NCBI GenBank assembly: GCA_020053475.1
Contig: JAGVNC010000028.1
Span: 551 to 64,550, forward strand
Length of the DNA: 64,000 nt
Direction: 5' to 3'
From: Candidatus Omnitrophota bacterium
Lineage (GTDB): Bacteria; Omnitrophota; Gorgyraeia; Zapsychrales; Zapsychraceae
The notes under the pieces were generated by a model. That model saw only the letters and a list, made by a program, of their open reading frames with translations, made no database searches and had not been told where the DNA came from. The translations under genes were made by a program, and so were the position numbers. Each line of letters begins with the position of its first letter. The stretch's first letter is position 1. Positions 28,837 through 63,758 of the stretch are shown here, one piece after another.

Positions 28837-28850
28837 AAGTTTGTTGCTTG

Positions 28851-29521: not shown

Positions 29522-29536
29522 ACGTTCAAATATCAA

Positions 29537-31949: not shown

Positions 31950-32434
31950 GAACGTCCCTTCGCTTTTGATTGTTGAATATGTTGAGAAAAGCCGCGCACT
32001 TCCGCCGGGGTAAACCATAAGCGTATTTCCCGTCGCGCCTCTTTCGCATTCGACGAAACATGGACAACATTTTCATAAACGCCTTTGGTCGTGATGCGCC
32101 CAAACGCCCCTCGAATGCTGCGCGGGTTGGCTTCCTCGGGGTTCGTGGCGCCGGCAATGGCCCGGCAGCGTTTGATGGCCTGGTCTCCATAATACACCAT
32201 CACCAAAACACTCCCAATCCCATTTAATTTTCCCGACAAATAATTAATAATCTCTTCGAAAAAAGGCTTGTTCCTTAATTGTTCATAATGCGCCGCGGCC
32301 AACGCCCGCGTAACTTTCGCCATCTTAATCCCGACGAGTCTTAAAAAAGGAGTGTCGTAACGATCCAAGACGGGGCCGATGAGCCCTCGCTGAATGCCGT
32401 CCGGCTTAATAATGACTAAGGCTGATTCGTTCAT
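31946..32434 (-). CDS. ndk: Nucleoside diphosphate kinase, 162 aa.
   Basis: LVIIKPDG... and NVVHVSS (the active-site His region), with a short C-terminal extension. Confidence 0.8.
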   Translation of the reverse strand: MNESALVIIKPDGIQRGLIGPVLDRYDTPFLRLVGIKMAKVTRALAAAHYEQLRNKPFFEEIINYLSGKLNGIGSVLVMVYYGDQAIKRCRAIAGATNPEEANPRSIRGAFGRITTKGVYENVVHVSSNAKEARREIRLWFTPAEVRGFSQHIQQSKAKGRS

Positions 32435-33288: not shown

Positions 33289-33330
33289 GTGTTCAATAAT
33301 TGAACATTATTTAACATCCCCAATATTCAT

Positions 33331-34137: not shown

Positions 34138-34146
34138 AGTTTGAGA

Positions 34147-34210
34147 TCCCGTGGAAGGAAAAACCTTCCCGGGATTTTAAATCCCTGAAATCGCAAAGCG
34201 ATTTCAGAGG
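34147..34210. repeat. Triple-hairpin repeat element, copy 3, 10 nt upstream of the parA start.
   Basis: tcccgtggaaggaaaaaccttcccgggattttaaatccctgaaatcgcaaagcgatttcagagga. Confidence 0.7.
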
Positions 34211-34211
34211 A

Positions 34212-34227
34212 TGTTTCACGTGAAACG
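34212..34227. promoter_or_regulatory. parS centromere site TGTTTCACGTGAAACG.
   Basis: 15/16 match to the canonical parS palindrome, upstream of parAB. Confidence 0.85.
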
Positions 34228-34248
34228 TTCATTTATCCAAGATTGGCA

Positions 34249-34264
34249 TGTTTCACGTGAAACA
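34249..34264. promoter_or_regulatory. parS centromere site TGTTTCACGTGAAACA, a perfect consensus.
   Basis: Perfect match to the canonical 16-nt parS, 37 nt from the first site. Confidence 0.9.
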
Positions 34265-34302
34265 TTACCGATAATTCTATTTTCTATGAATTCAGAGAAA
34301 AA

Positions 34303-34509
34303 TCAAGAAAATTGTTGTTTTTCTTTAATGGAGACTTTTATTTTGGCGGGCTTGGCACCCTCCATCCCGAAAAGGCCCTTCTTTTCTTCGCAGACGATCT
34401 TGACGACAATATCATCCCGGGTGACATTAAGAAGCTTAACCGCTTTCTCAATGGCCTCTTCTACGTCACCCCCTTCAACCTCTATGCTTTTGGACACTTT
34501 TTTTCTCAT
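34303..34509 (-). CDS. Jag/KhpB N-terminal-domain-only protein, 68 aa, with no KH or R3H domains.
   Basis: MRKKVSKSIEVEGGDVEEAIEKAVKLLNVTRDDIVVKIVCEEKKGLFGMEGAKPAKIKVSI resembles the Jag_N domain. It occupies the jag position downstream of yidC. Confidence 0.5.
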   Translation of the reverse strand: MRKKVSKSIEVEGGDVEEAIEKAVKLLNVTRDDIVVKIVCEEKKGLFGMEGAKPAKIKVSIKEKQQFS

Positions 34510-36991: not shown

Positions 36992-38344
36992 TTGAATGAG
37001 TTCATTATGAGTTTATCCAACGTTTGGAAAAAAGCCCAAGACATGATCAAAGAGAAGGTAGGGACAACCTCTTATGATACATGGTTCTCGACGCTGCAAG
37101 TGAAGGAACAATCCCCGCAAACTCTGGTGATCGAAACCCCGGATGAATTTTTTAAAAGTTGGATTGTCGAACATTATCAACCCTTTATTGATGAAACCAT
37201 CCATTCTTTGCACGAAGGCCCTATTAAGATTGAATATACGGTGAACACCGATTTAATCGAAAAAACCACTCAATCCCGCTTATCGAAATTTGAGCAAACA
37301 TTCGTTGAAGACAAATCGCCGAAAGCGGTATTAAATGCCCGCTTTACGTTTGAAAATTTTGTCATTGGGCCGTCTAATCGATTTGCGTGCGCCGCAGGAT
37401 TAGCCGTCGCCGAGGCCCCGGCCAAAGCATATAACCCTTTCTTTGTGTATGGCCAAGTTGGGTTAGGGAAAACCCATCTGATTCAAGCAATTACCCATAA
37501 AATCCGCCAGCTTAACCCCAGCGCAAAAATTTGTTATATTACCTCGGAGCGGTTCACGAACGAGCTGATTGAGGCGATTCGCCATCAATCCACGCCGAAC
37601 TTTCGGAAAAAATATCGGGAAATTGACGTTTTGCTCATTGATGACATTCATTTTATTGCCGGCAAAGAATCGACCCAGGAAGAATTCTTCCACACGTTTA
37701 ACGCGTTGCATGATAATCGAAAACAAATCATTATTACATCCGATCGGCCGCCCAAAGAAATCACCAACTTAGAAGAACGGCTGCGTTCACGCTTTGCCTG
37801 GGGACTGATTGCCGATGTTCAGCCTCCGGACTTTGAAACGCGCGTGGCAATCTTGCGTAAAAAAATCGAAAAAGAACCCATCCATGTTCCCGACGACGTT
37901 ATTTATTTTATTGCCGAACAGGTGCCCACCAATATTCGTGAACTAGAGGGGGCGTTGATTCGTGTGGCCGCTTATTCATTGTTGGAAGACAAGGTGATTT
38001 CGCTGGAGATGACCAAAGTCGTTCTCAAAGACATGGTGAAGGAGGCCACGAAAATTATTAGTATGGAGATGATCCAAAAATCCGTAGCCAACCATTACCA
38101 GATTTCATTGGCTGAGTTACGCGCCAAACGTCGAAATAAGAACATTGTTTTCCCCCGGCAAATGGCAATGTATTTAGCGCGCCAATTAACGAAAATGTCG
38201 TTACCGGAGATTGGGAACTCTTTTGGCGGGAAAGATCACACAACGGTCTTACATGCCTGTAAAAAGATTGAGCAAGAAATGTTGAAAAGTACCGACATTA
38301 AACACACGATCCTTGAGTTAACTTTAGTTATTAAGAACCCTTAG
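36992..38344 (+). CDS. dnaA: Chromosomal replication initiator DnaA, 450 aa. It may instead start at the Met at 37007.
   Basis: AAA+ Walker A GQVGLGKTHL and the C-terminal DnaA-box-binding domain. Confidence 0.95.
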   Translation: MNEFIMSLSNVWKKAQDMIKEKVGTTSYDTWFSTLQVKEQSPQTLVIETPDEFFKSWIVEHYQPFIDETIHSLHEGPIKIEYTVNTDLIEKTTQSRLSKFEQTFVEDKSPKAVLNARFTFENFVIGPSNRFACAAGLAVAEAPAKAYNPFFVYGQVGLGKTHLIQAITHKIRQLNPSAKICYITSERFTNELIEAIRHQSTPNFRKKYREIDVLLIDDIHFIAGKESTQEEFFHTFNALHDNRKQIIITSDRPPKEITNLEERLRSRFAWGLIADVQPPDFETRVAILRKKIEKEPIHVPDDVIYFIAEQVPTNIRELEGALIRVAAYSLLEDKVISLEMTKVVLKDMVKEATKIISMEMIQKSVANHYQISLAELRAKRRNKNIVFPRQMAMYLARQLTKMSLPEIGNSFGGKDHTTVLHACKKIEQEMLKSTDIKHTILELTLVIKNP

Positions 38345-38494
38345 TCTAGATATCCAAAGGCATTGAACAATTAAAAAGGTTGTAAGTTATTAGAAAAAAA
38401 TATTTTATATTTTTATTAGATTTATCCACAGGCCCTATTACTAAGGCTACTAATTGTTCTTATTAAAATATATAAGTAGGAGGTTGTTAATAAT
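38345..38494. other. AT-rich dnaA-dnaN intergenic region with a perfect DnaA box TTATCCACA at 38422-38430, a candidate DNA-unwinding element and second origin module.
   Basis: Read directly. The 150-nt segment is very AT-rich. Confidence 0.5.
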
Positions 38495-39583
38495 ATGAAA
38501 ATTAAGTGTTCTAAGGATGTTTTAATGCAGGGAGTTCAGGCTGTCCAAAACGTTGTTTCGCCAAAAATTACATTACCTATTCTCTCTAATATTCTTTTAG
38601 AAACAAAAAAGAATACATTGTATTTAACGGCGACCGACTTAGATATTGGGATCTCTTGTGAAATTCCTGTGGAAGTAATTCTGGATGGGGCGATTACGGT
38701 TCCCGCCAAGCGATTTAGCGATATTATTAAGGAGCTGCCTTCCGGAGATGTGGTGGTCCATGCGAAGAAAAATTATCAGGTGGATATTGAAGGCAATAAT
38801 TTTCGATTTAAATTAATCGGGATGCCTAAAGACGAGTTTCCTAAATTCCCCGAGTTTAAAGAAAAAGACATTATTTCTATTGAGCAAAAAACATTAAAGG
38901 AAATGTTGCGGTTAACAAGTTTTGCCGTATCCCACGAGGAATCACGCTATGTCCTCAATGGTGTTCTTTTAGAGGTAGCGGAAAATAAAATCCGCCTCGT
39001 GGCGACCGATGGGAGACGGTTGGCTAAAATTGAAAGAGTCCTTTCTCATCCAACATCCAAAGAGATCACGGTCATCATCCCCATTAAAGCCATTCAGGAA
39101 ATCAATCGTAATTTGAAAGACGAAGGCAATGTGATATTAAGTGTGGGGCTAAATCAAGTGTTGTTTGATGTTGGAGGGATTCTGATTGCCACGCGCATTA
39201 TTGAAGGGGAATTCCCTAATTATCAACAAGTCATCCCAAAATCGCAAGCGGAGAAAATCGTCATGAACCGCCAGGATTTTTTGTCATCGATCCGCCGGGC
39301 GAACCTATTGTCCACGCCGGATTTCCAGGCGGTTAAATTCGAAGTATTTAATAATAAAATGGTGATTTCCAAAACAACACCCGAGGTCGGGGAGTCGCGA
39401 GAAGAGATCCCCATCGAATACGGAGGCTCAGAGCTGGTGGTGGGGTTTAATCCGCATTTTATGATCGATGTGTTAAAAAATATCGAAGAAGAGCAAATTC
39501 ATTTGGAGCTATTGGGGACCGATAAGCCGGGCATCATCCGCCTCAAAGATTATTTATATCTGGCCTTGCCGATGCGTATTTAA
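38495..39583 (+). CDS. dnaN: DNA polymerase III beta sliding clamp, 362 aa.
   Basis: Three-domain beta-clamp sequence with RBS AGGAGG. Confidence 0.9.
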   Translation: MKIKCSKDVLMQGVQAVQNVVSPKITLPILSNILLETKKNTLYLTATDLDIGISCEIPVEVILDGAITVPAKRFSDIIKELPSGDVVVHAKKNYQVDIEGNNFRFKLIGMPKDEFPKFPEFKEKDIISIEQKTLKEMLRLTSFAVSHEESRYVLNGVLLEVAENKIRLVATDGRRLAKIERVLSHPTSKEITVIIPIKAIQEINRNLKDEGNVILSVGLNQVLFDVGGILIATRIIEGEFPNYQQVIPKSQAEKIVMNRQDFLSSIRRANLLSTPDFQAVKFEVFNNKMVISKTTPEVGESREEIPIEYGGSELVVGFNPHFMIDVLKNIEEEQIHLELLGTDKPGIIRLKDYLYLALPMRI

Positions 39584-39602
39584 CCTCAAATGTTGCATTG
39601 CA

Positions 39603-42463
<2,861 letters not shown>

Positions 42464-42580
42464 TGAAGCCCAGAGTTATGGAACGAGCAAAGCGAGTGAA
42501 CATAACTCTGTTGGCTGAATTAACCCCCAGCGTTTTGATTCGCATAGCGAATCAGCAGGGGGTCACTTAATGAAATATCG

Positions 42581-45031
42581 ATGCGTGATTTAACAGCCAA
42601 AGAAAAAATCATTCCTGTTTATATCGAAGAAGAAATGAAGAATTCCTATCTTTCTTATTCGATGAGTGTTATCGTCGGCCGCGCCCTCCCGGATGTGCGT
42701 GACGGCGTTAAGCCCGTGCATCGGCGCATTTTATATGCCATGAAGGAGTTGAACCTCGAGTACCCTAAAACATATAAAAAATGCGCCCGTATCGTCGGGG
42801 AAGTGTTGGGGAAATATCACCCTCACGGGGATGTGGCCGTGTACGATACGCTCGTTCGTCTCGTTCAGGACTTTTCGATGCGCTATCCATTGGTCGACGG
42901 GCAAGGAAACTTCGGGTCGATCGATGGGGACGCCGCCGCGGCCATGCGCTATACAGAGGCCCGGTTAGCGGCCATTTCTAGTGAAATGCTCGCCGATATC
43001 GATAAGGAAACCGTCAATTTTGTCCCCAATTTTGATTCGACGTTAGAAGAACCGAGCATTTTGCCGGCTGTTTTACCTAACCTTCTGGTCAATGGATCCA
43101 GCGGGATTGCCGTCGGGATGGCGACCAACATGCCGCCGCATAATTTAGGCGAAGTGGCGGACGCGATCGTTCAGTCCATCGACAATCCGGAAATGACGAT
43201 TAAAGATTTAAACAAAATCATCAAAGGCCCTGACTTTCCCACGGGCGGGATCATCTGTGGAAAAGAAGGGATCGTCGAGGCGTATACGACAGGGCGCGGG
43301 AAATTGACGGTGCGCGCGAAGGCGGCCATCGAGCGGCAGAAGGGCAATAAAGACAGCATCATCGTCACGGAAATTCCTTATCAAGTCAATAAGGCGAACT
43401 TGATTGAAGCCATCGCCGGGCTGGTCCAAGAGAAGAAGGTCGAGGGGATCACGGACATTCGCGACGAGTCCGACAAAGATGGGATCCGCGTGGTGATTGA
43501 ACTTCGCCGGGATGTTGAGGCCCAGATCATCCTTAATTATTTATATAAACACACTCAGCTGGAAATGACATTCGGCATCATTAATTTAGCTTTAGTCAAT
43601 AACAGCCCCAAGATCCTGAATCTTAAGCAACTCATTGAGCTTTATATTGATCATCGCCGGCTGGTGATCCGTCGGCGGACACAGTTTGATTTGGACCGTG
43701 CCCTCAAACGCGCCCACATTTTAGAAGGCTTGCGCATCGCGATTGATCATATCAACCAAATTATCAAAACGATCCGGAGCTCCAAGAGCGCGCCGCAAGC
43801 CAAAGTCGCGTTAATGAAAGAATTTGGCCTTTCCGAAATCCAAGCGCAAGCGATTCTGGAAATGCAACTCCAGCGATTGACAGGGTTGGAACGCGACAAA
43901 ATCGAAGAAGAATATCAACAGCTCCTGAAAGACATTGAGGAATTCCGCGCGATTTTAGCTTCCGAGAAACGAATTGAAGGGATTATCAAAGATGAATTGA
44001 CGGAAATCAAGAAGAAATATGCCGACGAGCGCCGGACGGAAATTGCCGGAAAAGCCGAAGAGATTGAAGTCGAGGACTTGATCGCCGAAGAAGATATGGC
44101 CATCACCATCAGCAACGCCGGGTATATCAAGCGTTTGGCGGTGAGCGCGTATCGCAAGCAAAAGCGCGGCGGGAAAGGCATCACGGCGATGGAAACCCGT
44201 GAAGAAGATTTTGTCACGCAGGTGTTTGTGGCGTCTTCCAAAGATTATTTGCTTGTTTTTTCAACCGAGGGGATTGTTCGTTGGCTGAAGGTTTACGAAA
44301 TCCCCGTCGCGTCGCGCACGTCCAAAGGAAAAAATATCGCCAGCCTTTTATCGATGGCGAACGACGAGCAAATCAGTTCGATTGTCGCTGTTAAAGAATT
44401 TTCAGACAACACATATATCGTCATGGCAACCTCTCAGGGCCTCGCGAAGAAAACAAAATTGTCCGCATTCAGTAATCCCCGGAAAGCCGGGATCGTTGGG
44501 ATCACCTTGGAAAAGAATGACCGCCTCATCGGGACCGCTCTTAGTAATGGCAAATATGATGTCTTTTTAGCGACGAAGGCTGGTAAATCATTGCGTTTTT
44601 CCGAGAAGAATATTCGGGACATGGGCCGTGGGGCCAAAGGCGTGCGTGGGATCAAGTTAGGCAAAGGCGATGAGGTCGTTAGCATGCAGGCTTTTTCTCC
44701 GGATATTGATAAAACGGGGAGCACGTTATTAGCTGTTACTTCATTAGGGTTTGCCAAACGTTCATCATTTAATGAATATCGGACACAATCGCGCGGCGGC
44801 AAAGGGATCATCAATGTGAAGGTCACGGAACGCAACGGCCATGTCGTCGGAGTGCTTTCGGTTATGCCTGATGATGAAGTCATGACAGTCACCAAACAAG
44901 GAATGATCGTGCGCTGTCCTCCCAGTGATGTCCGTCAAACCGGACGAAGCGCTGTCGGCGTGCGCTTGATTTCCCTCGACAAAGGCGATACGGTAAGCTC
45001 GGTGGCCAATGTTGTGGCCAAAGACGAATAA
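42581..45031 (+). CDS. gyrA: DNA gyrase subunit A, 816 aa.
   Basis: Active-site region [10 protein letters not shown] and a C-terminal beta-pinwheel. Confidence 0.95.
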
Positions 45032-52510: not shown

Positions 52511-52632
52511 TGGAGGAGGAGCAGTTTTTCATGTTTTAGTAAGAATTTTCTTAAAATAACTTGTTTTTTGAAGACCCGCCCATTATACTTATATTTGTAT
52601 CTAAATTTTGTAAATCATTAAAGGAGTCGGAA

Positions 52633-53598
52633 GTGTTAAAAAATAAAAGGGATATGACAAATATCCTGTTTTGCTTATTTTTACTTTTAGGCATTACAGG
52701 CTGCGATCAGATAAGACAAATGAAAGATTATTTTGTAAAACCGCACGAAAAGGCGGCAGAGCCTGTCGCTGTTCCTCAGGCTGTTCAACCTTCCGCAGGT
52801 GTTGTTGAGAAAAAAACCGAAGCGAAAATGGGCCCGGATACGTTGGCTAAGGTGGGCCAGTGGACCATGACCATTGGAGAATTTGAAGATCGTTTAAGCG
52901 CACTCAAAGAGGTGGCACCGGATTTCGACATTGGTAACCCGCAAAACAAAAAAGATATTTTAGAAGAGCTGATCCGCCAAGAACTTCTTGTTCAGGATGC
53001 TGAAAAATCGGGATTGGCATCGCAGAAAGATATTCAAGGCGCCATTGAGGAATTCCGCCGAACGTTGATTATCCGTCAACTGGCCCAACAGCTGACGGAA
53101 GGCGTCGAGGTTACTGATGAAGAAGCCAAAGATTTTTATGAGCGCAATCAACAAAGTATCGTCGAGCCGACGGATTGGCATTTACGCGAAATCGCATTTA
53201 GCGATCAGTTAAAAGCCAACGAAGTTTTAACGGAAATTTTAAAAGGAACGACCGATTTTGCGGAAATGGCCAAAACATATTCCACGAGCCCCTCGGCCCC
53301 TAACGGAGGCGATTTGGGATGGGTTCGTAATGTGGAAGAACTTCCTTTCCCCGAATTGGCCCAGCCATTGTTAACGTTGAAAGCCGGAGAAGTCAGCGGC
53401 GTGCTGAAGCATGAAGATAAATATTACATCGTTAAAGTGGAAGAAATTAAGGGTGGAGAAGCGATTCCTTTTGAAAAAGTGAAAGACCAGATTACGTCAA
53501 ATCAATTACTGCGCAAGCAGCAAGAAATCCTCATCAATTATATTAATAAGTTGCGCGAAGGTGTCTCTGTCGAAGTTAATGAAAGTTTGTTAAAATAA
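52633..53598 (+). CDS. PpiC-type peptidyl-prolyl isomerase (SurA/PrsA-like) lipoprotein, about 321 aa. GTG start with RBS AAGGAG. The ORF track starts 72 nt upstream.
   Basis: Lipobox LLGITGC and the PPIase domain GDLGWVRNVEELPFPELAQPL. Confidence 0.65.
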   Translation: MLKNKRDMTNILFCLFLLLGITGCDQIRQMKDYFVKPHEKAAEPVAVPQAVQPSAGVVEKKTEAKMGPDTLAKVGQWTMTIGEFEDRLSALKEVAPDFDIGNPQNKKDILEELIRQELLVQDAEKSGLASQKDIQGAIEEFRRTLIIRQLAQQLTEGVEVTDEEAKDFYERNQQSIVEPTDWHLREIAFSDQLKANEVLTEILKGTTDFAEMAKTYSTSPSAPNGGDLGWVRNVEELPFPELAQPLLTLKAGEVSGVLKHEDKYYIVKVEEIKGGEAIPFEKVKDQITSNQLLRKQQEILINYINKLREGVSVEVNESLLK

Positions 53599-53677: not shown

Positions 53678-54505
53678 ATGAATTTAGAGAATAAAAAACA
53701 AATCGCGACATTGTTGTTAGCGGTGGCACTTGGATTAGCCGCGGCTGTATTTACCAGCGATTATGTGACAAAGAGCATTAATAAACAAACGACCGCGTTG
53801 GCCAAAAATTATGACAAAAAGACGGAAGAGATCAAGAAAGAACTGGCCCTGACACAGAAGGCGTTGGATCAGTTGGCCAAAAATCAAAAAGTCTTGGCCG
53901 ACAGGCCTGCCCAGGTTGCCGCGGGAGGGCCGGAAAGGCAAATGACACCAGCGGGTGTCCTCTCCGCGCGAACACCTCCGGGGAAAAGAGCATTGACCAT
54001 TAATGTCGACACCCTTTCCGCCGTTGGAGGATTATTAAATCCCGGAGACCGCGTCGATATTATCGCTGATTTACAAATTCCCGATTCCCGTGATCCCAAA
54101 GCGGAACCGGATAAAGTCACATCCGTCTTGTTTCAAGATGTCCTTGTCCTTGCCGTAGGAACGAATTTTCAGCCGGTGACAACGGCCGAAGGGTATGATG
54201 CGCGTGCAAAAGCACGTTCGTTACAGATCACCCTGGCCCTAGACCCGGAAGAGGCTTCTTTAATCACGTTTTCCCAGAAATATGGCAAAATGCAACTAAC
54301 GTTGCGCCCACCGTCGGATGAGGGCGTGCAAAATATGGAAGTGGCTTCCTGGGATTCATTGGCCGATTTTGTCTTGGAAAGGCAAGGAACGGAGCTGATT
54401 GTCCCTAGGTCAAAGGCAAGAATTCAAACAGATGATACAGGGAAAAAAGAAACCAAAGACACAGAAGCCTTTATTCAAATTTTTAAGGGAGGCAAAGAGC
54501 AATAA
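53678..54505 (+). CDS. cpaB: Flp pilus assembly protein CpaB/RcpC (SAF domain), 275 aa.
   Basis: N-terminal TM helix and the SAF-like LTINVDTLSAVGGLLNPGDRVDIIADL. Confidence 0.75.
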   Translation: MNLENKKQIATLLLAVALGLAAAVFTSDYVTKSINKQTTALAKNYDKKTEEIKKELALTQKALDQLAKNQKVLADRPAQVAAGGPERQMTPAGVLSARTPPGKRALTINVDTLSAVGGLLNPGDRVDIIADLQIPDSRDPKAEPDKVTSVLFQDVLVLAVGTNFQPVTTAEGYDARAKARSLQITLALDPEEASLITFSQKYGKMQLTLRPPSDEGVQNMEVASWDSLADFVLERQGTELIVPRSKARIQTDDTGKKETKDTEAFIQIFKGGKEQ

Positions 54506-54508: not shown

Positions 54509-56332
54509 ATGGAAACTAAACGAGCGTTTAAAACATTGGCTTTACTGAAGATGAGCGTTGTGATGGGCGCATTTTTCCTTTTGGGTTTATCCGCACCGGC
54601 CCAGGCTCGCGTTGATGCCACAACGAACGAAGTCAACCTTCTTATCGGGGAATTAGAAACCATCGACGTTAAATCATTAACGCGCCTTTCGATTACGGAC
54701 CCCAAAGTGGTTGACATTGTTGAGGCCAAAGAAAGCGAGATTCTGATTATTGCCAAAGCCATCGGGCAAAGCGCTTTATTTGTTTGGGATGAAAACGGGA
54801 AACGCACTGTTCTCGTTAACGTGGCGGCCCAAAACTTAGGATTAATCTCGCAGCGGCTTGAAAAACTTTTTTCCTCGGTCCATATCGACAATGTTACCGT
54901 TGAAGTTAATGGGAAAGAGGGAAAAGTTGTCTTGACCGGTCAAATTTTCGAAGATAAAAAAGATCAGTTTGATCAGGTCATTGCCCCCTTCAATCGAGAC
55001 ATCATTAATCTCGTCAAGGTAGAAAAATCCGAAGATTTAATTGAGGTGGATATCCAGATTACGGAATTAACGACAACCTTGACGAAAGCCATCGGCATCG
55101 ACTGGGCATCTTCCAGCACGGGGCCCTCGATCTCTGGGTTGGGCGCCGGCGGCCTTTTGGCGCCAACATTTTCTGAAAATGTGCCCAGCGTTGATGGATC
55201 AGTGGAAGATCTTTTTAAGATTGGGAATTTTCAACGCACGTATCAGTTGATTGCCATGATTAACGCCTTATTAGAAGAAGGGAAGGCGCGGATCCTCTCT
55301 AAACCGAAGCTTGTTGTCGTCAGCGGAGAAGAAGCCAGTTTTAATGTCGGAGGAGAAATTCCGATCCGTACGACAACCACATCACAAGGTTCTACCCAAG
55401 AAAATGTGACATTTAAGAAATTTGGGATAGGGATGACGATTACGCCTACAATTAAAAAAGGGAAAATTGATTTATTGATGGAAGTTGAAGTTAGCGATAT
55501 TGATTCTGCCAACAAGGTCGGGGACAATGTGGCCTTTACGACACGCAATGCCCAAACAAGATTATATTTAGACAACGGCCAGCCCATCGTCATTGCAGGA
55601 TTGATAAAGAAGCGCGAGTCGGAATTGGTCAAAAAAGTTCCATTTTTAGGAGAAATTCCTATCATTGGGATTTTGTTTAGAAGCAAGTCGACTCCGTCAG
55701 CCAATGAAGACCAGGAACTAGTTATTTCTCTGACGCCGTTAATCCTCAATTCAGAATATAATTCTGCGATGATATCGAAAATTACTCCCCCATTGGAAGT
55801 AGCCGATGAGCCTCAAAAAGAACCAATGGACGATGATGATGTGGTTGCGGATGATGCTGATGATGCTGATGATGTGGATGCCGATGCGGATTTGGATGTG
55901 GATGAAACTGAAGAACCGTTGAGTTGGGATGACGAAACAATGCAAATGGATCCTAGTCCTGCGGTGGCGGCAAATGAAAGTCAATCTTCTACACAAATTA
56001 CTCCTGAAGAAAAATCTTCAGAGAATGATGGCTTTCCTGCGGGGATGAAAGATTATATTCAGGCGATTCAACAGCAGATTTCTAGCACGATCCAATATCC
56101 TCCCGAAGCGGAAGAATATGGTTGGGAGGGAACTGTCAGGCTAGGATTGCTCATCTTACACGACGGGACATTAGCGCTTGCTTCCATCAAGGAGTCCTCA
56201 GGGCATAAAATTTTTGACGAATACGCTCTTAATACGGCCAAAGAATTGGCCCCTTATTTAAGTTTCCCTCCTGAAACAGACCTGCAGGAATTAAATGTTA
56301 CGATTCCCATTGTGTATACCGTGGCCCGATAA
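54509..56332 (+). CDS. cpaC: Tad-type secretin (CpaC/RcpA family), 607 aa, with a polyacidic linker and a C-terminal TonB_C-like domain.
   Basis: Signal peptide and a secretin core (ARILSKPKLVVVSGEEASFNVGGEIPI...LTPLILNS). The acidic run DDDDVVADDADDADDVDADADLDVDETEE is followed by YPPEAEEYGWEGTVRLGLLILHDGTL...SSGHKIFDEYALNTAKE, which matches the TonB C-terminal consensus. Confidence 0.75.
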   Translation: METKRAFKTLALLKMSVVMGAFFLLGLSAPAQARVDATTNEVNLLIGELETIDVKSLTRLSITDPKVVDIVEAKESEILIIAKAIGQSALFVWDENGKRTVLVNVAAQNLGLISQRLEKLFSSVHIDNVTVEVNGKEGKVVLTGQIFEDKKDQFDQVIAPFNRDIINLVKVEKSEDLIEVDIQITELTTTLTKAIGIDWASSSTGPSISGLGAGGLLAPTFSENVPSVDGSVEDLFKIGNFQRTYQLIAMINALLEEGKARILSKPKLVVVSGEEASFNVGGEIPIRTTTTSQGSTQENVTFKKFGIGMTITPTIKKGKIDLLMEVEVSDIDSANKVGDNVAFTTRNAQTRLYLDNGQPIVIAGLIKKRESELVKKVPFLGEIPIIGILFRSKSTPSANEDQELVISLTPLILNSEYNSAMISKITPPLEVADEPQKEPMDDDDVVADDADDADDVDADADLDVDETEEPLSWDDETMQMDPSPAVAANESQSSTQITPEEKSSENDGFPAGMKDYIQAIQQQISSTIQYPPEAEEYGWEGTVRLGLLILHDGTLALASIKESSGHKIFDEYALNTAKELAPYLSFPPETDLQELNVTIPIVYTVAR

Positions 56333-56444: not shown

Positions 56445-58607
56445 ATGCAGGCAAAAACGATAACAATTTTTAGCAATAAAGGCGGTGTCGGCAAAACATT
56501 TGTCACCGTCAATACCGGCACAGCCATGGCCGTGGCTAACCACAAAGTCTTGATTTTAGATTTTGACTTTCAGGCAGGTCAAGATATGGCGCGGATGTTG
56601 AACATCGCCCCCAAACATGCCTTGGTCGATATTTTCCCCGTCTTGGAATCTTCCGATGATCCGCAGTTGATCTACAAATACGTTTCCGTTCATTCCAGCG
56701 GCGTGCATTTTTTGCCAGCCGTAAAAAATACCCGGCAGATCGGGCATATCACGCCCGACAACATCAAGCCTTTCTTAAAGAAAATAGCCTCCGCTTATGA
56801 TTTTATTCTTATTGACGCGGGAAAATCTTTTAGTGAAACGTTGATAACGGTTTTGGATTATTCCAACCTGATCCTGTTGGTCGCGACGCCGGATATTTTG
56901 GCGGTTTATAACATTAAGTGGTGTTTAGACGTTTTGCAGAGCCTGCAGTTTCCTAACAAAATGGTTAAGCTCGTATTAAACCGTTCCGAAAGCCGCGGGA
57001 GCGTGGCTTGGCAAGAGGTCCGGTCAGCGTTGCCTTGTGAAATTCTGACTCATATCCCTTCCGACGGAAAAACAGTCGGGATGGCTTTAAACCGGGGAAT
57101 TCCTTGCGTGGTCGATGCGCCTAAAAGCCGTGTGGCTGAATCGTTCTTTCGCCTGGCTTCACTTTTCGAAAAAGATGATATGTTTGTTGCGGCGACGGAG
57201 GTTGAGAAACAAAGGACAACGGATGAATTTGCCAAACCCGGGGCTTTTTGGGAAAAATTCGGCATCACCCAAGCCATGGGAATGTCGTTGCCGGGGATTT
57301 CTTTTGCCACGGAAGAAGATGAGGTCATCGTGTTAAAAAGGAAAATTCACGAGAAGCTCGTCAAGCGGCTCAATTTAGACGGGATTACGCCCGAAGCGTT
57401 AAACGATCCGATTGCCGCCCAAGGGATCAAGAGAAATGCCGAAGAGGTCGTGGCCAATATGTTGACGGAAGAGGCGGGCGGGATGCTGGCCGCGCACGAG
57501 GAACGCGTTCGGCTGGTCAAGGATATTGTCAATGAAGCGTTAGGCCTCGGCCCGCTGGAAGATTTTTTGGCGGATCCGGACGTGACCGATATTATGGTCA
57601 ACAGCCGTGATCAGATTTATGTGGAAAAAAGCGGCAAACTTATTTTGACGAATAAAAAATTTATTTCTGATGAAAAAATGCGGTCCGTCATTGAGCGTAT
57701 CATTGCGCCCTTGGGCCGTCGCATCGATGAATCGACACCCATGGTGGATGCGCGCCTTCCTGACGGATCCCGGATCAATGCCATTATCCCCCCTTTGTCC
57801 TTAAATGGCCCGATGATTACCATTCGTAAATTCGGCCAGGAACGTTTGACCGCTGAAGATCTTCAGCACCGATTTCATTCGCTCAATCAAGCCATGCGCG
57901 ATTTTTTGCAAGCTTGTGTTTTAGGCAGAAAGAACATCATTGTTTCCGGTGGAACCGGCGCCGGGAAAACGACATTATTGAATGTCATTTCGGAATTTAT
58001 TCCAGACAACGAACGGTTGATTACCATTGAGGACGCCGCCGAATTGAAGCTGAAAAAAAGCCATTGGGCGAGATTAGAGTCGCGCCCGTCGAACATCGAG
58101 GGCCGCGGACAGGTCACGATCCGCGATTTGTTTATTAACAGTTTGCGGATGCGCCCGGACAGGATTGTCATCGGCGAATGCCGCGGGGCGGAGGTGTTGG
58201 ACATGCTTCAGGCCATGAACACGGGCCACGACGGATCATTAACAACGCTGCACGCCAACTCCACCAAGGACGTTTTAGTCCGGATGCATTCGATGATCCT
58301 GTTAAGCGGGATTGAATTGCCTGTGCGCGCCATCAATGAAATGGTGGCCTCGGCCATTGATATCATTGTCCATGTCGCTCGGTTTTCTGACGGAACCCGG
58401 AAAATAACGGGAATTTCTGAAGTGACGGGGCTCAGTAAAGATTTTCAGTGCGAGCTTGAGGACGTTTTTGTTTTCAAGCAAACAGGCCTCGACAGCGATG
58501 GCAAAATTTTGGGGAGTTATCAGCCGACAGGATATATTCCCATTTGCTATGAAGATTTCGCGACGCGCGGATTACCGATCGATCGAAGTATTTTCTTGAA
58601 GGCTTAA
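56445..58607 (+). CDS. Fused TadZ/CpaE-like ParA-family ATPase (N-terminal) and TadA/CpaF secretion ATPase (C-terminal), 720 aa.
   Basis: N-terminal deviant Walker A FSNKGGVGKTFVTVN. C-terminal GGTGAGKTTLLN plus T2SSE-family motifs (His box TLHANS). Confidence 0.75.
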   Translation: MQAKTITIFSNKGGVGKTFVTVNTGTAMAVANHKVLILDFDFQAGQDMARMLNIAPKHALVDIFPVLESSDDPQLIYKYVSVHSSGVHFLPAVKNTRQIGHITPDNIKPFLKKIASAYDFILIDAGKSFSETLITVLDYSNLILLVATPDILAVYNIKWCLDVLQSLQFPNKMVKLVLNRSESRGSVAWQEVRSALPCEILTHIPSDGKTVGMALNRGIPCVVDAPKSRVAESFFRLASLFEKDDMFVAATEVEKQRTTDEFAKPGAFWEKFGITQAMGMSLPGISFATEEDEVIVLKRKIHEKLVKRLNLDGITPEALNDPIAAQGIKRNAEEVVANMLTEEAGGMLAAHEERVRLVKDIVNEALGLGPLEDFLADPDVTDIMVNSRDQIYVEKSGKLILTNKKFISDEKMRSVIERIIAPLGRRIDESTPMVDARLPDGSRINAIIPPLSLNGPMITIRKFGQERLTAEDLQHRFHSLNQAMRDFLQACVLGRKNIIVSGGTGAGKTTLLNVISEFIPDNERLITIEDAAELKLKKSHWARLESRPSNIEGRGQVTIRDLFINSLRMRPDRIVIGECRGAEVLDMLQAMNTGHDGSLTTLHANSTKDVLVRMHSMILLSGIELPVRAINEMVASAIDIIVHVARFSDGTRKITGISEVTGLSKDFQCELEDVFVFKQTGLDSDGKILGSYQPTGYIPICYEDFATRGLPIDRSIFLKA

Positions 58608-58615: not shown

Positions 58616-58960
58616 ATGCCGCAGATTTTTAATAAAACAAAGAATACACTCGTTGCTTCCCAGGCCAAAATGGCCCAAAATTTCCTTGCCCGCATGGTCG
58701 GCCTTCTCAACCGGTCTTCGTTGTCCCCCCAAGAAGCCCTGATTATTCCCCATTGCCAATCGATTCATATGTTCTTTATGCGTTTTCCCATTGATGTTAT
58801 TTTCGTGGATAGCGAAAATAAAGTTGTGCATCTTCTAAAGAATATCCGGCCTTTTCAGCTCAGTCCCATCATTTTTTCTTCCTTCTATGCCATCGAAATG
58901 GCTGTGGGCGGCATTGAAACGTCGCGCACAGCGGTTGGCGATTTCCTCTTGCTAGAATAA
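58616..58960 (+). CDS. DUF192 (COG1430) protein, 114 aa.
   Basis: IHMFFMRFPIDVIFVD is the characteristic DUF192 core. Confidence 0.55.
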   Translation: MPQIFNKTKNTLVASQAKMAQNFLARMVGLLNRSSLSPQEALIIPHCQSIHMFFMRFPIDVIFVDSENKVVHLLKNIRPFQLSPIIFSSFYAIEMAVGGIETSRTAVGDFLLLE

Positions 58961-59041: not shown

Positions 59042-60898
59042 ATGGGTGTTGTTTATAAACTAAAAGACGAAGTTCTTCAATTCATTATCCAGCAAAAAAA
59101 GGACATCCCTTCCTTGGGCGTGCGCCAATTGGCCGGCCTTGTCAGCACCAAATTCCACCTTCAAGTTTCGAAATCTTCCGTTAGCAATGTTTTAAAAGGC
59201 GCTCATTTAAGCAGCGGGGTGGGAAGAAGGGCCACGCAAGACCGGAAACAAAAAAAATTTAAAATCCCGACGCAGAAGAAGAAAGAGATTTCGGAGCACA
59301 TGCAAAAAATGGCCCTGGGCCGGGAGCCGGTGCTTTCCAAGGCCACGATCAGCGAAAAACCCGTTGAACACATGGCGCCCTCAGCTGAACCTGTCGAAGA
59401 GGTTCTGGCGAATGAGGATGAAAGCGAGATTTTGGAGAAAGAAATTCTTGTTGTCCCGCCAGTCCCGTCGGAGAAATCCCCAGGAATTGAAGCGGCCGAT
59501 CCCTTGAGGGAAGTTTCTTCTCTCCCGCCAACGCAATCTTCCAAAGATGTTTTTTATCAGCATGTTCGGGAGATTCAAGCGCGGCGCGTCGCGCAACAGG
59601 GGAAGCTTTATCAAGGGCTGGGATGTATTTTTCTAAAAGCCGCAGAATGGGAAGGGAATCAACACCCTTGGGATCAATTATTCGCTCAAGAATCAGGAGC
59701 GCTTTCGGATAATTTTTCGGGTACATTTTCCGCCCTCGCGATCGAAGCGTTTTTAACCAAAGAAGGGGCGAGCCGTAAGGACATGTTCAAAGAAGGAATT
59801 TTTGTCCTTAATGATTTAGACCCTGCAGCGCCACAGGCACAACATCGTTTTGATCAAATCGCCGGACTTGTCATCCCTGAGCCTGTTGTTTGGGAATACA
59901 CTGACCATCTTCAACAATTTTTTGCTCAAGCAGACCTGTTTCGTTGGGAATTAGAAGATGCAACGGAATTTTATACCGATCCAGGAGCGACTTTTTTAGA
60001 TGAGCAGGTTTCTTCGGGCGGGCTCGCCTTTCCTTTAAACAAGGCCTTGACGATTTTGTCCCGAGAGATCATTAGCAATAATCATCCGCTGATTTTATGC
60101 CAAGCCCCCGGCCAGCAGGCCATTGACGCGTGTTTCGATGATTTTTTAGGCGCGTTCGAAGGCCACTCGAATAAATCCATTGTTGCGCTCACCGTGCTCA
60201 ATGAGCACCAAGAAGAAGTCGCGATGTTTAACATCATTCCTCGTCGACGCCGAAATTTTATTTGCGGGCTGTGGCCGCACCTGAAGGAATTTAAAGAATT
60301 AACAAAGACCGTCAAGTGGGCCGCGAAACAACCCTTTTATGTTGAGCATGCGGATCGAATTGTCTATTCTGCCGCCACCCAAACAGATTATTTTGCGTCA
60401 CATTTATCGGAGAACCCCCGGCCCATGCGCTTGTTAACGCTTTGGAACGATGAACAAGCAGAGCCCTGCATGAGCATTCTGTGTAATGACATGGACATCG
60501 AGCCGCAAAAAATCCTGGATTTATATACAACGCGATGGCCTTATCTGGAAAGGCCTGCCTTGTTTAAAGAGGCTGGGGAGCCGCTACCTTTGATCCAAAA
60601 TGCGGATCAACATCATTCATTAGAATCGTTGGCGGGAAAATTTGGGGACATCCTCCACCAATACTGTTTAAGAAAGTTCTTTCCTTCATATCGGCGCTTA
60701 CCTTCGGCATCCTTAATTGAAAATATTTATGAAATGCCGGGATATGTGATCAAAACCCCTCAATCTTATCAAATTTTGTTAAAAACAAAGGGGAATGCGG
60801 AAAATCGCTTAGAAGAGCTTAAGGATGCTGTTCAGCGGCTAAATGAACACGGCATTGAGACAGGGGACGGGAAGAAGGTTTCAATCCTTATAATATAA
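59042..60898 (+). CDS. Large hypothetical protein, 618 aa. It has an N-terminal HTH-like segment, a Pro/Glu/Lys-rich linker and a C-terminal region containing the motif YTTRWPYLERP. An upstream TGcTATACT extended -10 lies inside the palindrome GGACATT-N24-AATGTCC.
   Basis: Read directly. No confident family was assigned. Confidence 0.45.
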   Translation: MGVVYKLKDEVLQFIIQQKKDIPSLGVRQLAGLVSTKFHLQVSKSSVSNVLKGAHLSSGVGRRATQDRKQKKFKIPTQKKKEISEHMQKMALGREPVLSKATISEKPVEHMAPSAEPVEEVLANEDESEILEKEILVVPPVPSEKSPGIEAADPLREVSSLPPTQSSKDVFYQHVREIQARRVAQQGKLYQGLGCIFLKAAEWEGNQHPWDQLFAQESGALSDNFSGTFSALAIEAFLTKEGASRKDMFKEGIFVLNDLDPAAPQAQHRFDQIAGLVIPEPVVWEYTDHLQQFFAQADLFRWELEDATEFYTDPGATFLDEQVSSGGLAFPLNKALTILSREIISNNHPLILCQAPGQQAIDACFDDFLGAFEGHSNKSIVALTVLNEHQEEVAMFNIIPRRRRNFICGLWPHLKEFKELTKTVKWAAKQPFYVEHADRIVYSAATQTDYFASHLSENPRPMRLLTLWNDEQAEPCMSILCNDMDIEPQKILDLYTTRWPYLERPALFKEAGEPLPLIQNADQHHSLESLAGKFGDILHQYCLRKFFPSYRRLPSASLIENIYEMPGYVIKTPQSYQILLKTKGNAENRLEELKDAVQRLNEHGIETGDGKKVSILII

Positions 60899-61256: not shown

Positions 61257-61427
61257 ATGAAAGGCTTTTTAAGAATAATGGACCATTTAGACCGCAAAGG
61301 TCAAAACTTGATCGAATATGCCTTCGTCGCCTCTATCGTGATCGCTGCTGTTTTTGTCATGAGTACTTATGTGTTTCGTTCTGTCCAATCCACGCAACAG
61401 ATGATTCAAAAAGAAGCAATCAAGTAA
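61257..61427 (+). CDS. flp: Flp-family prepilin, 56 aa (leader MKGFLRIMDHLDRKG, then QNLIEY).
   Basis: G/XXXXEY processing motif followed by a 20-aa hydrophobic segment. Confidence 0.75.
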   Translation: MKGFLRIMDHLDRKGQNLIEYAFVASIVIAAVFVMSTYVFRSVQSTQQMIQKEAIK

Positions 61428-61511
61428 ACCCTTTAAAGAAATTCTTTAAACGGGGGACTCTTTGTCGTTAGAGCATCAACAAAAGAGAGAATATCTTCAA
61501 GGAGGAATCTA

Positions 61512-61742
61512 ATGTTAAGACGTAACATAAAAACGCCCGCGCTAAAGAAAAAGAAGGGGCAATCGACGCTGGAATATATCATCCTTGTAGCTGGCGTCAT
61601 TGCTGTGTTGATTGTTTTCTTGGCGCCCGGCGGTATTTTCCAGACATCGTTTAATTCGATCCTGTCATCTGGGACGCAAGGCGGAGTGCAGCTGGCGAAC
61701 GCGTTAAAGCTTTCGCACGGGGGCAACGCCGATGCATTTTAA
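61512..61742 (+). CDS. Flp-type prepilin paralog, 76 aa.
   Basis: KKKKG-QSTLEY motif plus a hydrophobic segment. RBS AAGGAGG. Confidence 0.7.
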   Translation: MLRRNIKTPALKKKKGQSTLEYIILVAGVIAVLIVFLAPGGIFQTSFNSILSSGTQGGVQLANALKLSHGGNADAF

Positions 61743-61762
61743 CATTGTGGAGGGAAAAACAA

Positions 61763-62122
61763 ATGTTTAGAAAATTGTTAAAAAATAAAAAAGCGCAAAA
61801 TACCCTCGAGTATGCGATCCTGATCTCTTTGGTCGTCGCGGGGATTGTTGCCATGCAAACGTATGCCCAACGAGCCTTGCAAGCGAGAGTTCGTGACGCG
61901 AGCTCGTATTTGGCGAATCAAACCGGAGCCTTAGGGAATACGCTTCAGTATGAACCTTATTATCTAAGTACCAACTACGCAATCGAGCGGGACGAATCAG
62001 AAACCCAAATACTGGATAACGTCACAACCTTACAACAGGTGAATTCTACTCGTAAACGAGCTGCGGGTGGGTTCCAGAGTTCTGATTACAGTACGGCATT
62101 CGGTATTGTCAATGGCATCTAA
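61763..62122 (+). CDS. Flp-type prepilin paralog with an extended C-terminal domain, about 119 aa. ATG start after RBS GGAGGG. The ORF track starts at TTG 61745.
   Basis: KNKKA-QNTLEY motif. The C-terminal region is paralogous to the 62656 gene (shared YEPYY). Confidence 0.65.
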   Translation: MFRKLLKNKKAQNTLEYAILISLVVAGIVAMQTYAQRALQARVRDASSYLANQTGALGNTLQYEPYYLSTNYAIERDESETQILDNVTTLQQVNSTRKRAAGGFQSSDYSTAFGIVNGI

Positions 62123-62188
62123 GGAAAAGCAAGCCAAGCAGCTTGTTTTCCTAACATTGAGCCATTTTAAATTGAGGAGGATCATTCA

Positions 62189-62518
62189 ATGTTGAGGCTT
62201 TTGAATAAACGAAGAAAAAAAGGGCAAAGTACGCTGGAATATGCCATTCTGATTATTATCATCCTCGGTGCGCTGATGTCCATCCAGATATATATCAAAC
62301 GCGGGATTCAAGGAAGACTGAAAAGCGCGACAGATGATATCGGGGACCAGTTCTCTCCGGGGAATACCAATGTAGTGAAAATTATGCACACCGTCAGTAA
62401 TTCTGTCGATACGTTTGCGTTCGGTAAATCCAAATCCACATTAACAGGTAAGGGGGAAATAACGACCGAACAAATGAATTCTGACATCATGATTGTTAAT
62501 CAGGAATTCTGGCAATAA
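62189..62518 (+). CDS. Flp-type prepilin paralog with an extended C-terminal domain, 109 aa.
   Basis: RRKKG-QSTLEY motif. Paralogous to the 63437 gene (shared YIKRGIQGRLK...GDQFSP). RBS GAGGAGG. Confidence 0.7.
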   Translation: MLRLLNKRRKKGQSTLEYAILIIIILGALMSIQIYIKRGIQGRLKSATDDIGDQFSPGNTNVVKIMHTVSNSVDTFAFGKSKSTLTGKGEITTEQMNSDIMIVNQEFWQ

Positions 62519-62655
62519 GCCCGGCTTTTGATGACAAGATATGGCTTGCTTGGGAGAGAGGTTCTTTTCGGGCAGGCCATATTTTTTTAGCGGGCTCGCA
62601 TTCGCAAGAACGTTAGAACGTTATCATGAGAATGCGGGTTTAATCTTTCTTCATT

Positions 62656-63036
62656 ATGTTAAAGCTTCTAACAAATAGACGCGCTCAGGCTATGATGGGC
62701 GAATATGTCCTTGTTTTTGTGATTGTTTTAAGCGTCATGGGGGCGATGACGGTTTATTTCAAACGCGCCATCCAGGCCCGCATGTACGACGCCCGTAACG
62801 CAATGGTCGGGACCGTCTATGAACGGACGAACGAGATCAATTATGTGGGGGAAATCGGGGTCGCGTACGAGCCTTATTACACCAACACCACGTCATCTGT
62901 GCAGAGGACATCAGAATCAGAAACAAGGTTGAAGCCTGGGCTGACGACGGGGATTTTTAGTAAAACAATTAACGAAACGACAGCTGTTCAGACAGAAAGC
63001 ACGACCGCTCCGCCTAAAGATGTGGACTTGTTTTAA
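62656..63036 (+). CDS. Flp-type prepilin-like paralog, 126 aa, with the variant motif RRAQAMMGEY.
   Basis: Hydrophobic segment after the GEY motif, and a Thr/Ser-rich C-terminus. Confidence 0.55.
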   Translation: MLKLLTNRRAQAMMGEYVLVFVIVLSVMGAMTVYFKRAIQARMYDARNAMVGTVYERTNEINYVGEIGVAYEPYYTNTTSSVQRTSESETRLKPGLTTGIFSKTINETTAVQTESTTAPPKDVDLF

Positions 63037-63037
63037 T

Positions 63038-63391
63038 ATGTTGAGAAAAAGATCATTTCGCCATCAGAGGAAGACACAAAACGCCCAATCCATGCTTGAA
63101 TATGTCATTGTCATTGGCGTTATCGTCACGGTTCTGTTCACGATGAACCCTTTGCTGAAGCGCAGCATCCAAGGGCTTATTAAATTCGTCGCGGACCAAG
63201 TTGGTAATCAAGAGAACGCGGAACAAGATTTCGATGAGATGGGGCATTTACAATCTCAACATGTCAAAACGCAGGCGGACATTCATCGGACAGAAATTGA
63301 TTTTTTGCGCGTGATGAATTATATTTCCGATGAAGTGGTTGTTTCGGAAAGTAACACGCAGATTAATGCGGGATTTACTCAGACCGATTAA
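63038..63391 (+). CDS. Flp-type prepilin-like paralog, about 117 aa, with motif KTQNAQSMLEY. The start is uncertain; an alternative ATG lies at 63020.
   Basis: Motif plus a hydrophobic segment. Confidence 0.5.
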   Translation: MLRKRSFRHQRKTQNAQSMLEYVIVIGVIVTVLFTMNPLLKRSIQGLIKFVADQVGNQENAEQDFDEMGHLQSQHVKTQADIHRTEIDFLRVMNYISDEVVVSESNTQINAGFTQTD

Positions 63392-63436
63392 ATGGTTAAA
63401 ATTTGCTGTGGCATGGATGATAGGGAGACTTAGCAT

Positions 63437-63758
63437 GAAACTGATTGGCCGCAAAAAACGAAGAGGGCAAAGCGTCATCGAATACGTCATTCTGATCACT
63501 ATCTTATTGGGTGCTTTCTTGGCCATTGGAACTTATTTTAAGCGCGGCGTTCAGGGGCGCTGGAAAGAGGCTGTCGACGGATTCGGTGATCAATACGATC
63601 CCCGCGCTGCCGACACGAACATTAAACACAGCATTTTGTCAAATACCAATACGACGATTTTGGCGATGAATAGTGTCGGCGGCTTCTGGACATCGCGCAC
63701 TGATGAATCAAAAACGACTGAAAAAAGGACGGGATATATGTCGTCGGGAGCGTATTGA
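63437..63758 (+). CDS. Flp-type prepilin paralog, about 107 aa. Start MKLIGRKKRRG-QSVIEY with RBS GGGAG.
   Basis: G/XXXXEY motif. Paralogous to the 62189 gene. Confidence 0.65.

Follow-up and report, generated by a model that had tools for sequence, protein, structure and literature searches.

A Tad-type pilus secretin with a C-terminal TonB_C module in the Omnitrophota

Tad secretins and TonB-type domains

The closest known Tad secretins to the one considered here are that of A. caldus (8JVB/9WFD) and the P. aeruginosa RcpA-TadD complex (8ODN). In RcpA the barrel is followed by an unstructured S-domain whose final four residues dock into the TPR pilotin TadD, a contact that is essential for ring formation (PMC10499894), and the alignment-complex protein RcpC/CpaB meets the N-domain of the secretin by way of a C-terminal beta-hairpin (PMC12307814). 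The gene described in this report, at 54509..56332 (+) in a 64,000-nucleotide stretch of contig JAGVNC010000028.1 from a Candidatus Omnitrophota bacterium (the whole stretch being referred to below as the window), encodes a Tad/Cpa-type secretin that carries, beyond its barrel, a disordered tether and a folded C-terminal module of the TonB_C family. Tad pili are the main candidate organelle for attachment and predation of the Omnitrophota, which are widespread, ultra-small and probably host-dependent (PMC10066038).

Accessory domains are known from the secretins of other pilus machines; e.g. the AMIN domains of PilQ bind peptidoglycan and localise the machine (PMC5285504). TonB and TolA are recognised by three hallmarks, i.e. 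an N-terminal transmembrane helix for the ExbBD/TolQR motor, a periplasm-spanning spacer and a C-terminal domain that acts by beta-strand addition (PMC12204202). A TonB-type protein has been tied to a pilus in P. aeruginosa, where type IV pili depend on PocAB-TonB3 for their production and localisation through a mechanism that is unexplained; a contact between TonB3 and PilQ has been speculated by the authors of that work (PMC5285504).

The secretin and its C-terminal module

The gene is a single uninterrupted open reading frame (ORF) of 607 residues, with its ATG 3 nt past the stop of the upstream RcpC/CpaB gene, and three Pfam families exceed their gathering scores in its product (all parts lying on the plus strand): the N-terminal beta domain PF13629 (T2SS-T3SS_pil_N) at residues 40-103 (54626..54817; 3.8e-10), the secretin core PF00263 at residues 253-413 (55265..55747; 5.4e-42, spanning profile positions 1-168 of 169) and TonB_C (PF03544) at residues 528-604 (2.4e-13, 50.8 bits against a gathering score of 24.6). 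The last of these matches bears out the TonB_C-like C-terminal domain that a first-pass annotation, made from the sequence alone, had proposed; the NCBIfam model tonB_Cterm (TIGR01352; 1.5e-12) agrees on the tail, and Pfam TonB_2 gives a weak match. A signal peptide ending in ...APAQA can be read from the sequence (residues 1-33, 54509..54607) and is modelled as a helix over residues 3-26. Between the N-terminal domain and the core lies a second periplasmic alpha/beta domain of the ring-building type (residues about 110-190, 54836..55078), recognised from the predicted structure and from a weak YscD BON-like match. The last barrel strand is followed by a short predicted helix at the S-domain position (residues 415-425, 55751..55783), by the disordered tether (residues 426-505, 55784..56023) and by the conserved module itself (residues 506-607, 56024..56329), which consists of a helix (513-527) and a beta-beta-alpha-beta domain of the TonB/TolA type.

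Pfam finds no AMIN or N0 family in the protein, and no peptidoglycan-binding family (AMIN, LysM, SPOR, OmpA_C, PG_binding) at E up to 1. In having a PF13629 N-domain, and not the N0/AMIN of GspD/PilQ, together with a PF00263 core, the protein resembles RcpA/CpaC, and its gene likewise adjoins those for RcpC/CpaB, a CpaE/CpaF ATPase and Flp-type pilins, neighbours that are kept in 76-79 of the 80 loci compared. The gene product is the outer-membrane secretin of an Omnitrophota Tad/Cpa-type pilus machine.

An AlphaFold2 monomer model based on a 94-sequence alignment has a mean pLDDT (predicted local distance difference test) of 78.8 and gives the N-domains, the barrel hairpins and the C-terminal module with confidence. 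The pLDDT is 93-97 for the PF13629 domain, above 90 for the second periplasmic domain and again 93-97 for residues 507-607, so that the structure prediction which the first-pass annotation had recommended for the C-terminus supports a folded domain there; residues 427-506 fall below 50 and thus appear as a disordered tether. When the tail is modelled alone (pLDDT 84.8) its elements follow in the order helix, short helix, beta, beta, helix, beta. The solved RcpA is a gated outer-membrane ring of 13-14 subunits, whereas the present secretin is represented by a monomer model only. Among solved structures the best match to the secretin part is 8jvb/9wfd (2.6e-36, aligned over residues 18 to 415), followed by P. 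aeruginosa RcpA (8odn; 1.2e-26), both ahead of GspD and PilQ, while the nearest solved domain to the module by sequence is that of H. pylori TonB (8.6e-6). The fold search returned no solved secretin with a TonB_C-type domain, the secretin and TonB matches being separate entries.

Distribution and conservation of the fusion

The fusion is not peculiar to this one gene. Of the 120 best-matching database homologues, which have 41-57% identity, 119 contain PF13629, PF00263 and PF03544 together, and the one that does not is a truncated entry, 99% identical, from an Omnitrophica metagenome-assembled genome; the survey for the same tail that had been suggested thus finds it in nearly every one of these homologues, and since the 119 encode it in one ORF, as does the gene itself, the fusion is real and not a separate frame created by a sequencing frameshift. 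One genome per GTDB species was also scanned, which yielded 532 confirmed relatives, and the locus figures in this report refer to the best 80 of these 532; in all 80 species loci the alignment to the query extends up to residues 603-607. The informative taxon names are all Omnitrophota, and a search for the fusion outside the phylum gave match lists that were saturated by the secretin-TonB_C family. Conflicting labels do occur: many loci in L001-L080 are labelled 'uncultured Planctomycetales' and one (L041) 'Elulimicrobium sp.', and a secretin-TonB_C fragment (P0273, in the cluster of P0217) on a 3.4-kb contig is labelled 'Candidatus Hydrothermarchaeota archaeon'. The full loci under such labels show Omnitrophota synteny and the others are on small contigs, and the labels are likely to be submitter or placeholder names or to reflect mis-binning. 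The secretin-TonB_C protein is a real variant and the standard Tad secretin of the whole phylum.

The module (query residues 506-607) is 51-69% identical across homologues, as compared with 49-73% for the secretin core, and in the homologues it ends 0-7 residues short of the C-terminus. Thirteen of its residues are invariant among the 94 aligned sequences, the terminal beta-strand (594-603) is conserved, and the module is under strong purifying selection across the Omnitrophota. In 17 of the 119 homologues there are two tandem modules, each of which matches the module profile at 1e-34 to 1e-46. The spacer of 10-35 residues between tandem modules often contains a conserved cysteine (GVCEP, VCPP, GICQGGTCDP), as in P0003, P0005, P0009, P0011, P0012, P0015, P0017, P0026, P0047 and P0108; such cysteines could form periplasmic intersubunit disulfides around the ring.

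Comparison with other secretins and with TonB

RcpA has a short pilotin-binding tail and pairs with TadD, whereas in the Omnitrophota a tether of 16-242 residues and one or two TonB_C modules follow the barrel, and the present locus has no TadD. The S-domain-pilotin pairs of the secretion systems of types II and III (GspD-AspS/PulS, InvG-InvH; 5zdh, 6hcg) likewise involve a post-barrel C-terminal extension that makes its contacts outside the ring; however, in those systems the S-domain is a short helical or coil peptide to which a lipoprotein binds, while the extension described here is itself a folded binding domain. The tail also resembles the peptidoglycan-anchoring PilQ AMIN/TsaP of type IVa pilus secretins, in that an accessory periplasmic module, thought to anchor or localise the ring, occurs once or twice per subunit and is dispensable for the barrel fold. 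It differs from the AMIN domains, for which peptidoglycan binding has been shown, in its fold and in its C-terminal rather than N-terminal position.

Of the three hallmarks of TonB/TolA only the C-terminal domain is present in the secretin (for comparison PF03544/PF13103; 9DDZ, 5LW8, 2GRX, 6S3W), and the terminal beta-strand that is used in beta-strand addition is kept. There is no transmembrane anchor or SHLS-type motor-binding segment, the N-terminus consisting of a signal peptide with secretin domains after it, and the linker is not a proline-rich spacer (8 P and 30 D/E in 80 residues). The ORFs that were scanned in the 64-kb window include no exbB, exbD, tolQ or tolR gene and no gene for a TonB-dependent receptor. 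In TonB the domain belongs to the inner-membrane motor partner, whereas here it is carried by an outer-membrane protein and therefore does not transduce force in the manner of TonB; the database label 'TonB family protein' is misleading for secretin-TonB_C, which is no energy transducer. The PocAB-TonB3 system is similar in that a TonB-type C-terminal domain is tied functionally to a pilus secretin system, and differs in that TonB3 is a separate, motor-coupled inner-membrane protein, in contrast to the covalent, motor-less fusion found here. By analogy, and as speculation, the secretin-TonB_C fusion may be a covalent counterpart of the PocAB-TonB3 requirement.

The linker and its polyacidic run

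The 80-residue linker (426-505) contains 30 D/E and only 2 K/R, and within it lies the acidic run DDDDVVADDADDADDVDADADLDVDETEE (residues 441-469, 55829..55915, +), in which 18 of 29 residues are D/E and which is encoded by imperfect GAT-based tandem repeats. Composition of this kind is all but confined to this segment in the window; just 22 of the 44,007 stop-free 29-residue segments in its six-frame translation have at least 15 D/E. The first-pass annotation had pointed to an acidic linker, and whereas the run itself is present, its acidity does not hold up as a conserved feature: homologue linkers vary from 16 to 242 residues (median 32) with a D/E fraction of 0 to 0.35, and the P fraction is family-wide mostly 0.03-0.17 (range 0-0.26). 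A polyacidic linker as a conserved functional element was accordingly rejected, both acidity and length varying widely; the run is a lineage-specific GAT-repeat expansion. Longer linkers do have a more negative net charge (Spearman -0.79, n=120, with a p-value that is inflated by the relatedness of the sequences, which are not independent), and D-rich or E-rich linker sequences are used by independent lineages. On the basis of this correlation and these independent lineages it appears that long tethers are kept acidic though their sequence is free; i.e. the sequence of the acidic run is incidental, but its charge is not.

Related modules on TolC-like channels

A profile search with the tail alignment finds 31,752 TonB_C-like proteins at E<=1e-3, of which 72 reach E<=1e-30. 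About 80 of the 143 new top representatives are secretin fusions, complete or fragmentary, nine further full-length double-module forms being among them, and short matches that score high but show no secretin most likely represent pieces of such fusions. The remaining top representatives include proteins with 2-7 modules. In one group, fusions to TolC-like channels of the OEP family (PF02321), 1-6 TonB_C modules are N-terminal, and some of these entries are labelled Omnitrophota: OEP is joined to three modules in P0190, to two in P0223 and P0258, and to six in P0264, whose cluster representative is annotated Candidatus Omnitrophota, and P0283 is an OEP fusion from another Omnitrophota entry. 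A high raw rank of multi-module proteins, which might be taken as closeness, had to be corrected because the rank sums over copies. The OEP-fused modules score 26-69 bits each, while those fused to a secretin have a median of 113 bits; the OEP-fused ones are 25-43% identical to the query module and still much closer to it than any solved TonB. Motor-less TonB_C modules decorate two unrelated outer-membrane channel classes in the Omnitrophota.

A homology search with the six-module OEP protein as query gave three matches, the repetitive query limiting the word index. Loci of OEP fusions are L083:6001-8391 and L086:7735-9744, with the proteins P0190 and P0283; in two independent OEP loci the gene follows a divergent gene of more than 2,300 residues and a gene of about 100 residues, and in L086 an RND transporter gene (ACR_tran) lies about 5 kb downstream of the fusion. 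The OEP fusions may serve secretion or efflux in connection with the giant proteins of the Omnitrophota.

Possible function of the tail

Since the tail occupies the position of the RcpA S-domain, it emerges on the barrel's outer side, close to the outer membrane's inner face, and the typical linkers of 16-35 residues keep the module near the barrel and that membrane. The reading preferred here, which is given about an even chance of being correct, is that the secretin tail is a passive, multivalent periplasmic tether or adaptor by which the pore is anchored or positioned via an envelope ligand. In an assembled ring of 13-14 subunits, as in RcpA, the tails would form a crown of 13-28 modules at the periplasmic rim, under the outer membrane, and this crown would hold or position the secretin by binding the ligand; the module would then take over the assembly or anchoring role that belongs to the pilotin-binding tail or to the N-terminal AMIN domains of other secretins. 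The ligand is predicted to be an exposed, short beta-strand on a partner protein, which the module would capture by beta-strand addition; it is most probably of this kind since no other binding mode of the TonB/TolA fold is structurally established. It is probably also a general envelope component and not one specific to Tad, because TolC-like channels carry related modules. The long acidic linkers would fit an extended, non-sticky spacer.

Several points weigh against a passive tether of this kind. The monomer model has a pTM (predicted template modelling score) of 0.52, so that its placement of the module relative to the barrel is unreliable, and no ligand or TonB-box-like partner strand was identified for the module. 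Arrays of 2-7 modules are more typical of polymer-binding, i.e. cell-wall, modules than of peptide capture. The negative results for an Exb/Tol motor, for TonB-dependent receptors and for TadD are confined to the 64-kb window, and gene order alone is no pointer to function, because the synteny of the locus runs into housekeeping genes (malate dehydrogenase, GST).

The main rival explanation, which is unlikely though it retains an appreciable share of the probability, is a peptidoglycan anchor, in which the TonB_C crown would bind the cell wall directly, as PilQ AMIN does, and would either hold the secretin in place under the forces of pilus retraction or adhesion or direct it to an envelope site. 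Secretins commonly carry or recruit peptidoglycan-binding modules, for which PilQ AMIN is the precedent (PMC5285504), and no peptidoglycan-handling component is known for Tad machines (PMC12307814). The multivalency is typical of wall binding, with 13-14 copies per ring, tandem modules in 17 of 119 homologues and the arrays of 2-7, and module arrays are also found on TolC-like channels, which traverse the wall. The C-terminus of E. coli TonB reportedly binds peptidoglycan as well, a result that is ascribed to Kaserer and co-workers in 2008. However, no recognised peptidoglycan-binding family is present in the secretin, and most linkers, at 16-35 residues, offer little length for spanning the gap between barrel rim and wall; most of the modules are acidic (median pI 4.9; net charge -9 for the query module), which weakly disfavours the binding of an anionic polymer. 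Recent work (PMC10771500) moreover puts the peptidoglycan contact of the Ton system on ExbD.

It is rather improbable that the module is a built-in pilotin substitute with a role in biogenesis only, by which the monomer would dock to an outer-membrane lipoprotein, to the Bam/Lol machinery or to neighbouring protomers with no need for TadD. The tail is exactly at the S-domain position that RcpA uses for pilotin binding, no TPR/TadD-like gene lies in the window or in the conserved locus, and a PpiC/SurA-type lipoprotein is a constant upstream neighbour (70/80 loci); yet a TadD homologue could be encoded outside the window, the TolC-like proteins need no pilotin and still carry related modules, and the upstream synteny that includes the lipoprotein continues into unrelated housekeeping genes. 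A force-coupled or gated channel, whose TonB_C would capture a strand on an inner-membrane stator or on a true TonB/TolA-like partner, with proton-motive force then driving the opening, closing or rotation of the secretin, would agree with a fold that is that of force transducers and with the need for PocAB-TonB3 in P. aeruginosa type IV pili (PMC5285504). It is nevertheless very improbable, given that the secretin has no transmembrane anchor or SHLS-type segment, that no exbB/exbD/tolQ/tolR is among the ORFs scanned in the window, that a disordered tether of 16-242 residues is a poor force transmitter and that the C-terminus is outside the barrel. Of the two roles offered in the first-pass annotation, anchoring the channel or gating it, the former is plausible and the latter unlikely, with the tail outside the barrel at the S-domain position and no motor coupling. 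Finally, the variable linker length and the repeat expansion in the acidic run might suggest an assembly or annotation artefact, or a decaying appendage without function, but this is refuted and has practically no probability left: the ORF is continuous, the fusion recurs in 119/120 homologues from many independent assemblies and in 80/80 species loci, and the module is as conserved as the core, with its 13 invariant residues and a confidently predicted fold.

A broader proposal than the passive tether, to which a low probability is attached, is that the Omnitrophota use motor-less TonB/TolA-type domains as a general, hitherto unrecognised coupling module, which would be placed at the C-terminus of the Tad secretin and, in 1-6 copies, at the N-terminus of TolC-like channels, and which would have one common envelope partner. 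In its boldest form this would be an inverted Ton system, where the binding domain, placed on the outer-membrane side, would catch a strand of an inner-membrane stator and the Tad pilus would thereby be force-coupled.

The Tad locus and its surroundings

The conserved gene order is GST, CN-hydrolase, malate dehydrogenase, a PpiC/SurA-type protein, CpaB, secretin-TonB_C, CpaE-CpaF, DUF192, a protein of roughly 600 residues and seven pilins, several of the 80 loci being cut by contig ends; all the Tad-region genes described next are on the plus strand. The SurA/PpiC-type peptidyl-prolyl isomerase (52561..53598; 70/80 loci) is probably a lipoprotein, with a likely start at M32 and the lipobox ITGC (...LLLGITGC). 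It lies directly upstream of cpaB and is a candidate periplasmic chaperone for the secretin, and as a syntenic neighbour it is, by position only, a candidate member of the Tad system. The RcpC/CpaB alignment-complex protein (53678..54505; 79/80 loci) has an N-terminal transmembrane helix and ends in a hairpin-like ...FIQIFKGGKEQ, similar to the hairpin that meets the secretin N-domain in the known system; the canonical alignment contact therefore appears to be intact, and TonB_C is not needed for it.

Downstream of the secretin is a 720-residue protein (56445..58607; 76/80 loci, in most of these at about 99% coverage) in which a CpaE/TadZ-like part of ParA/MinD fold (residues 4-240) is fused to a CpaF/TadA ATPase (T2SSE, residues 366-646), whereas in canonical Tad loci CpaE/TadZ and CpaF/TadA are separate. 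An extra gene between secretin and ATPase in some loci (e.g. L032) was considered as a partner and rejected, since by eye it looks to be an unrelated gene of the AAA-ATPase/DUF4143 type. A DUF192 protein (58616..58960; 63/80 loci) is followed by a 618-residue protein (59042..60898) that has no Pfam match, keeps its position and is 22-31% identical where it can be aligned over most of its length; this protein, between DUF192 and the pilins, is a fast-evolving component. Its N-terminus looks like a helix-turn-helix, and no signal peptide or transmembrane segment is evident. Seven consecutive Flp/class-III-signal pilin-like genes (61257..63758) then encode products of 56-142 residues with the motif G-Q-S/N-x-[LI]-E-Y. 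A single one of these (61512-61742) passes the Class_IIIsignal threshold (29 bits against a gathering score of 23.7), and both Flp_Fap and Class_IIIsignal are found in the orthologous locus L081; pilin number and order are kept in about 45 of the 80 loci, many of the others being cut by contig ends.

The ORFs scanned in the 64-kb window include neither a T2SSF protein (the TadB/TadC platform) nor a peptidase A24, and neither turned up within 10 kb downstream in L081; TadB/TadC and the prepilin peptidase may lie elsewhere in the genome. A TPR/TadD-like pilotin gene was similarly absent from the ORFs scanned in the window and from the conserved locus, as was a TadD-like pilotin from the 10 kb downstream in L081. 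In the loci L081 and L082 a further stand-alone T2SSE ATPase (458-473 residues) is encoded upstream, between gyrA and the dehydrogenase gene, and this ATPase has no counterpart in the window.

The window includes an origin region at 36992-45031, with dnaA (36992), dnaN, dciA, gyrB and gyrA, and upstream of these yidC, parA and parB on the minus strand (32431-36125); in the relative L081 the Tad locus adjoins gyrA. The Tad locus is thus origin-proximal in the window and in L081, and this fits with the position of the expressed Tad locus of V. archaeovorus LiM, at 12382-29832 (PMC10066038). Also in the window are a complete gene set for a Na+-translocating NADH:quinone reductase (Nqr; 5861-11667, minus strand) and, at 16239-16835, a small protein with two PG_binding_1 repeats, which indicates a peptidoglycan-containing envelope.

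Novelty and significance

No mention of a secretin-TonB_C fusion was found in the literature searched, 'TonB' occurring 0 times in the main Omnitrophota Tad paper (PMC10066038) and 'secretin' 0 times in a paper on TonB/TolA evolution (PMC12204202). The earlier remark that such a fusion is not known among described Tad secretins is in keeping with this, as no paper describing it came to light, and sequences with the fusion are already in the databases under the names 'TonB family protein' or 'CpaC'. New, then, is a phylum-wide Tad secretin with an undescribed accessory domain; known are the public, auto-annotated sequences and the well-known families from which the parts come.

That a conserved binding domain occupies the pilotin-binding site of other Tad secretins suggests that the assembly or anchoring of the secretin is solved in another way here. 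The fusion is also a Rosetta-stone link between TonB-type domains and pilus secretins and bears on the TonB3 (PocAB) requirement in P. aeruginosa, and a well-folded module of about 100 residues is a convenient bait for the envelope partner. If a general coupling module does exist, it would amount to a way of anchoring and organising outer-membrane machines that is independent of pilotin, Lpp and Pal, and if the boldest form of that proposal were true, the Tad pilus associated with predation or attachment in the Omnitrophota would be force-coupled.

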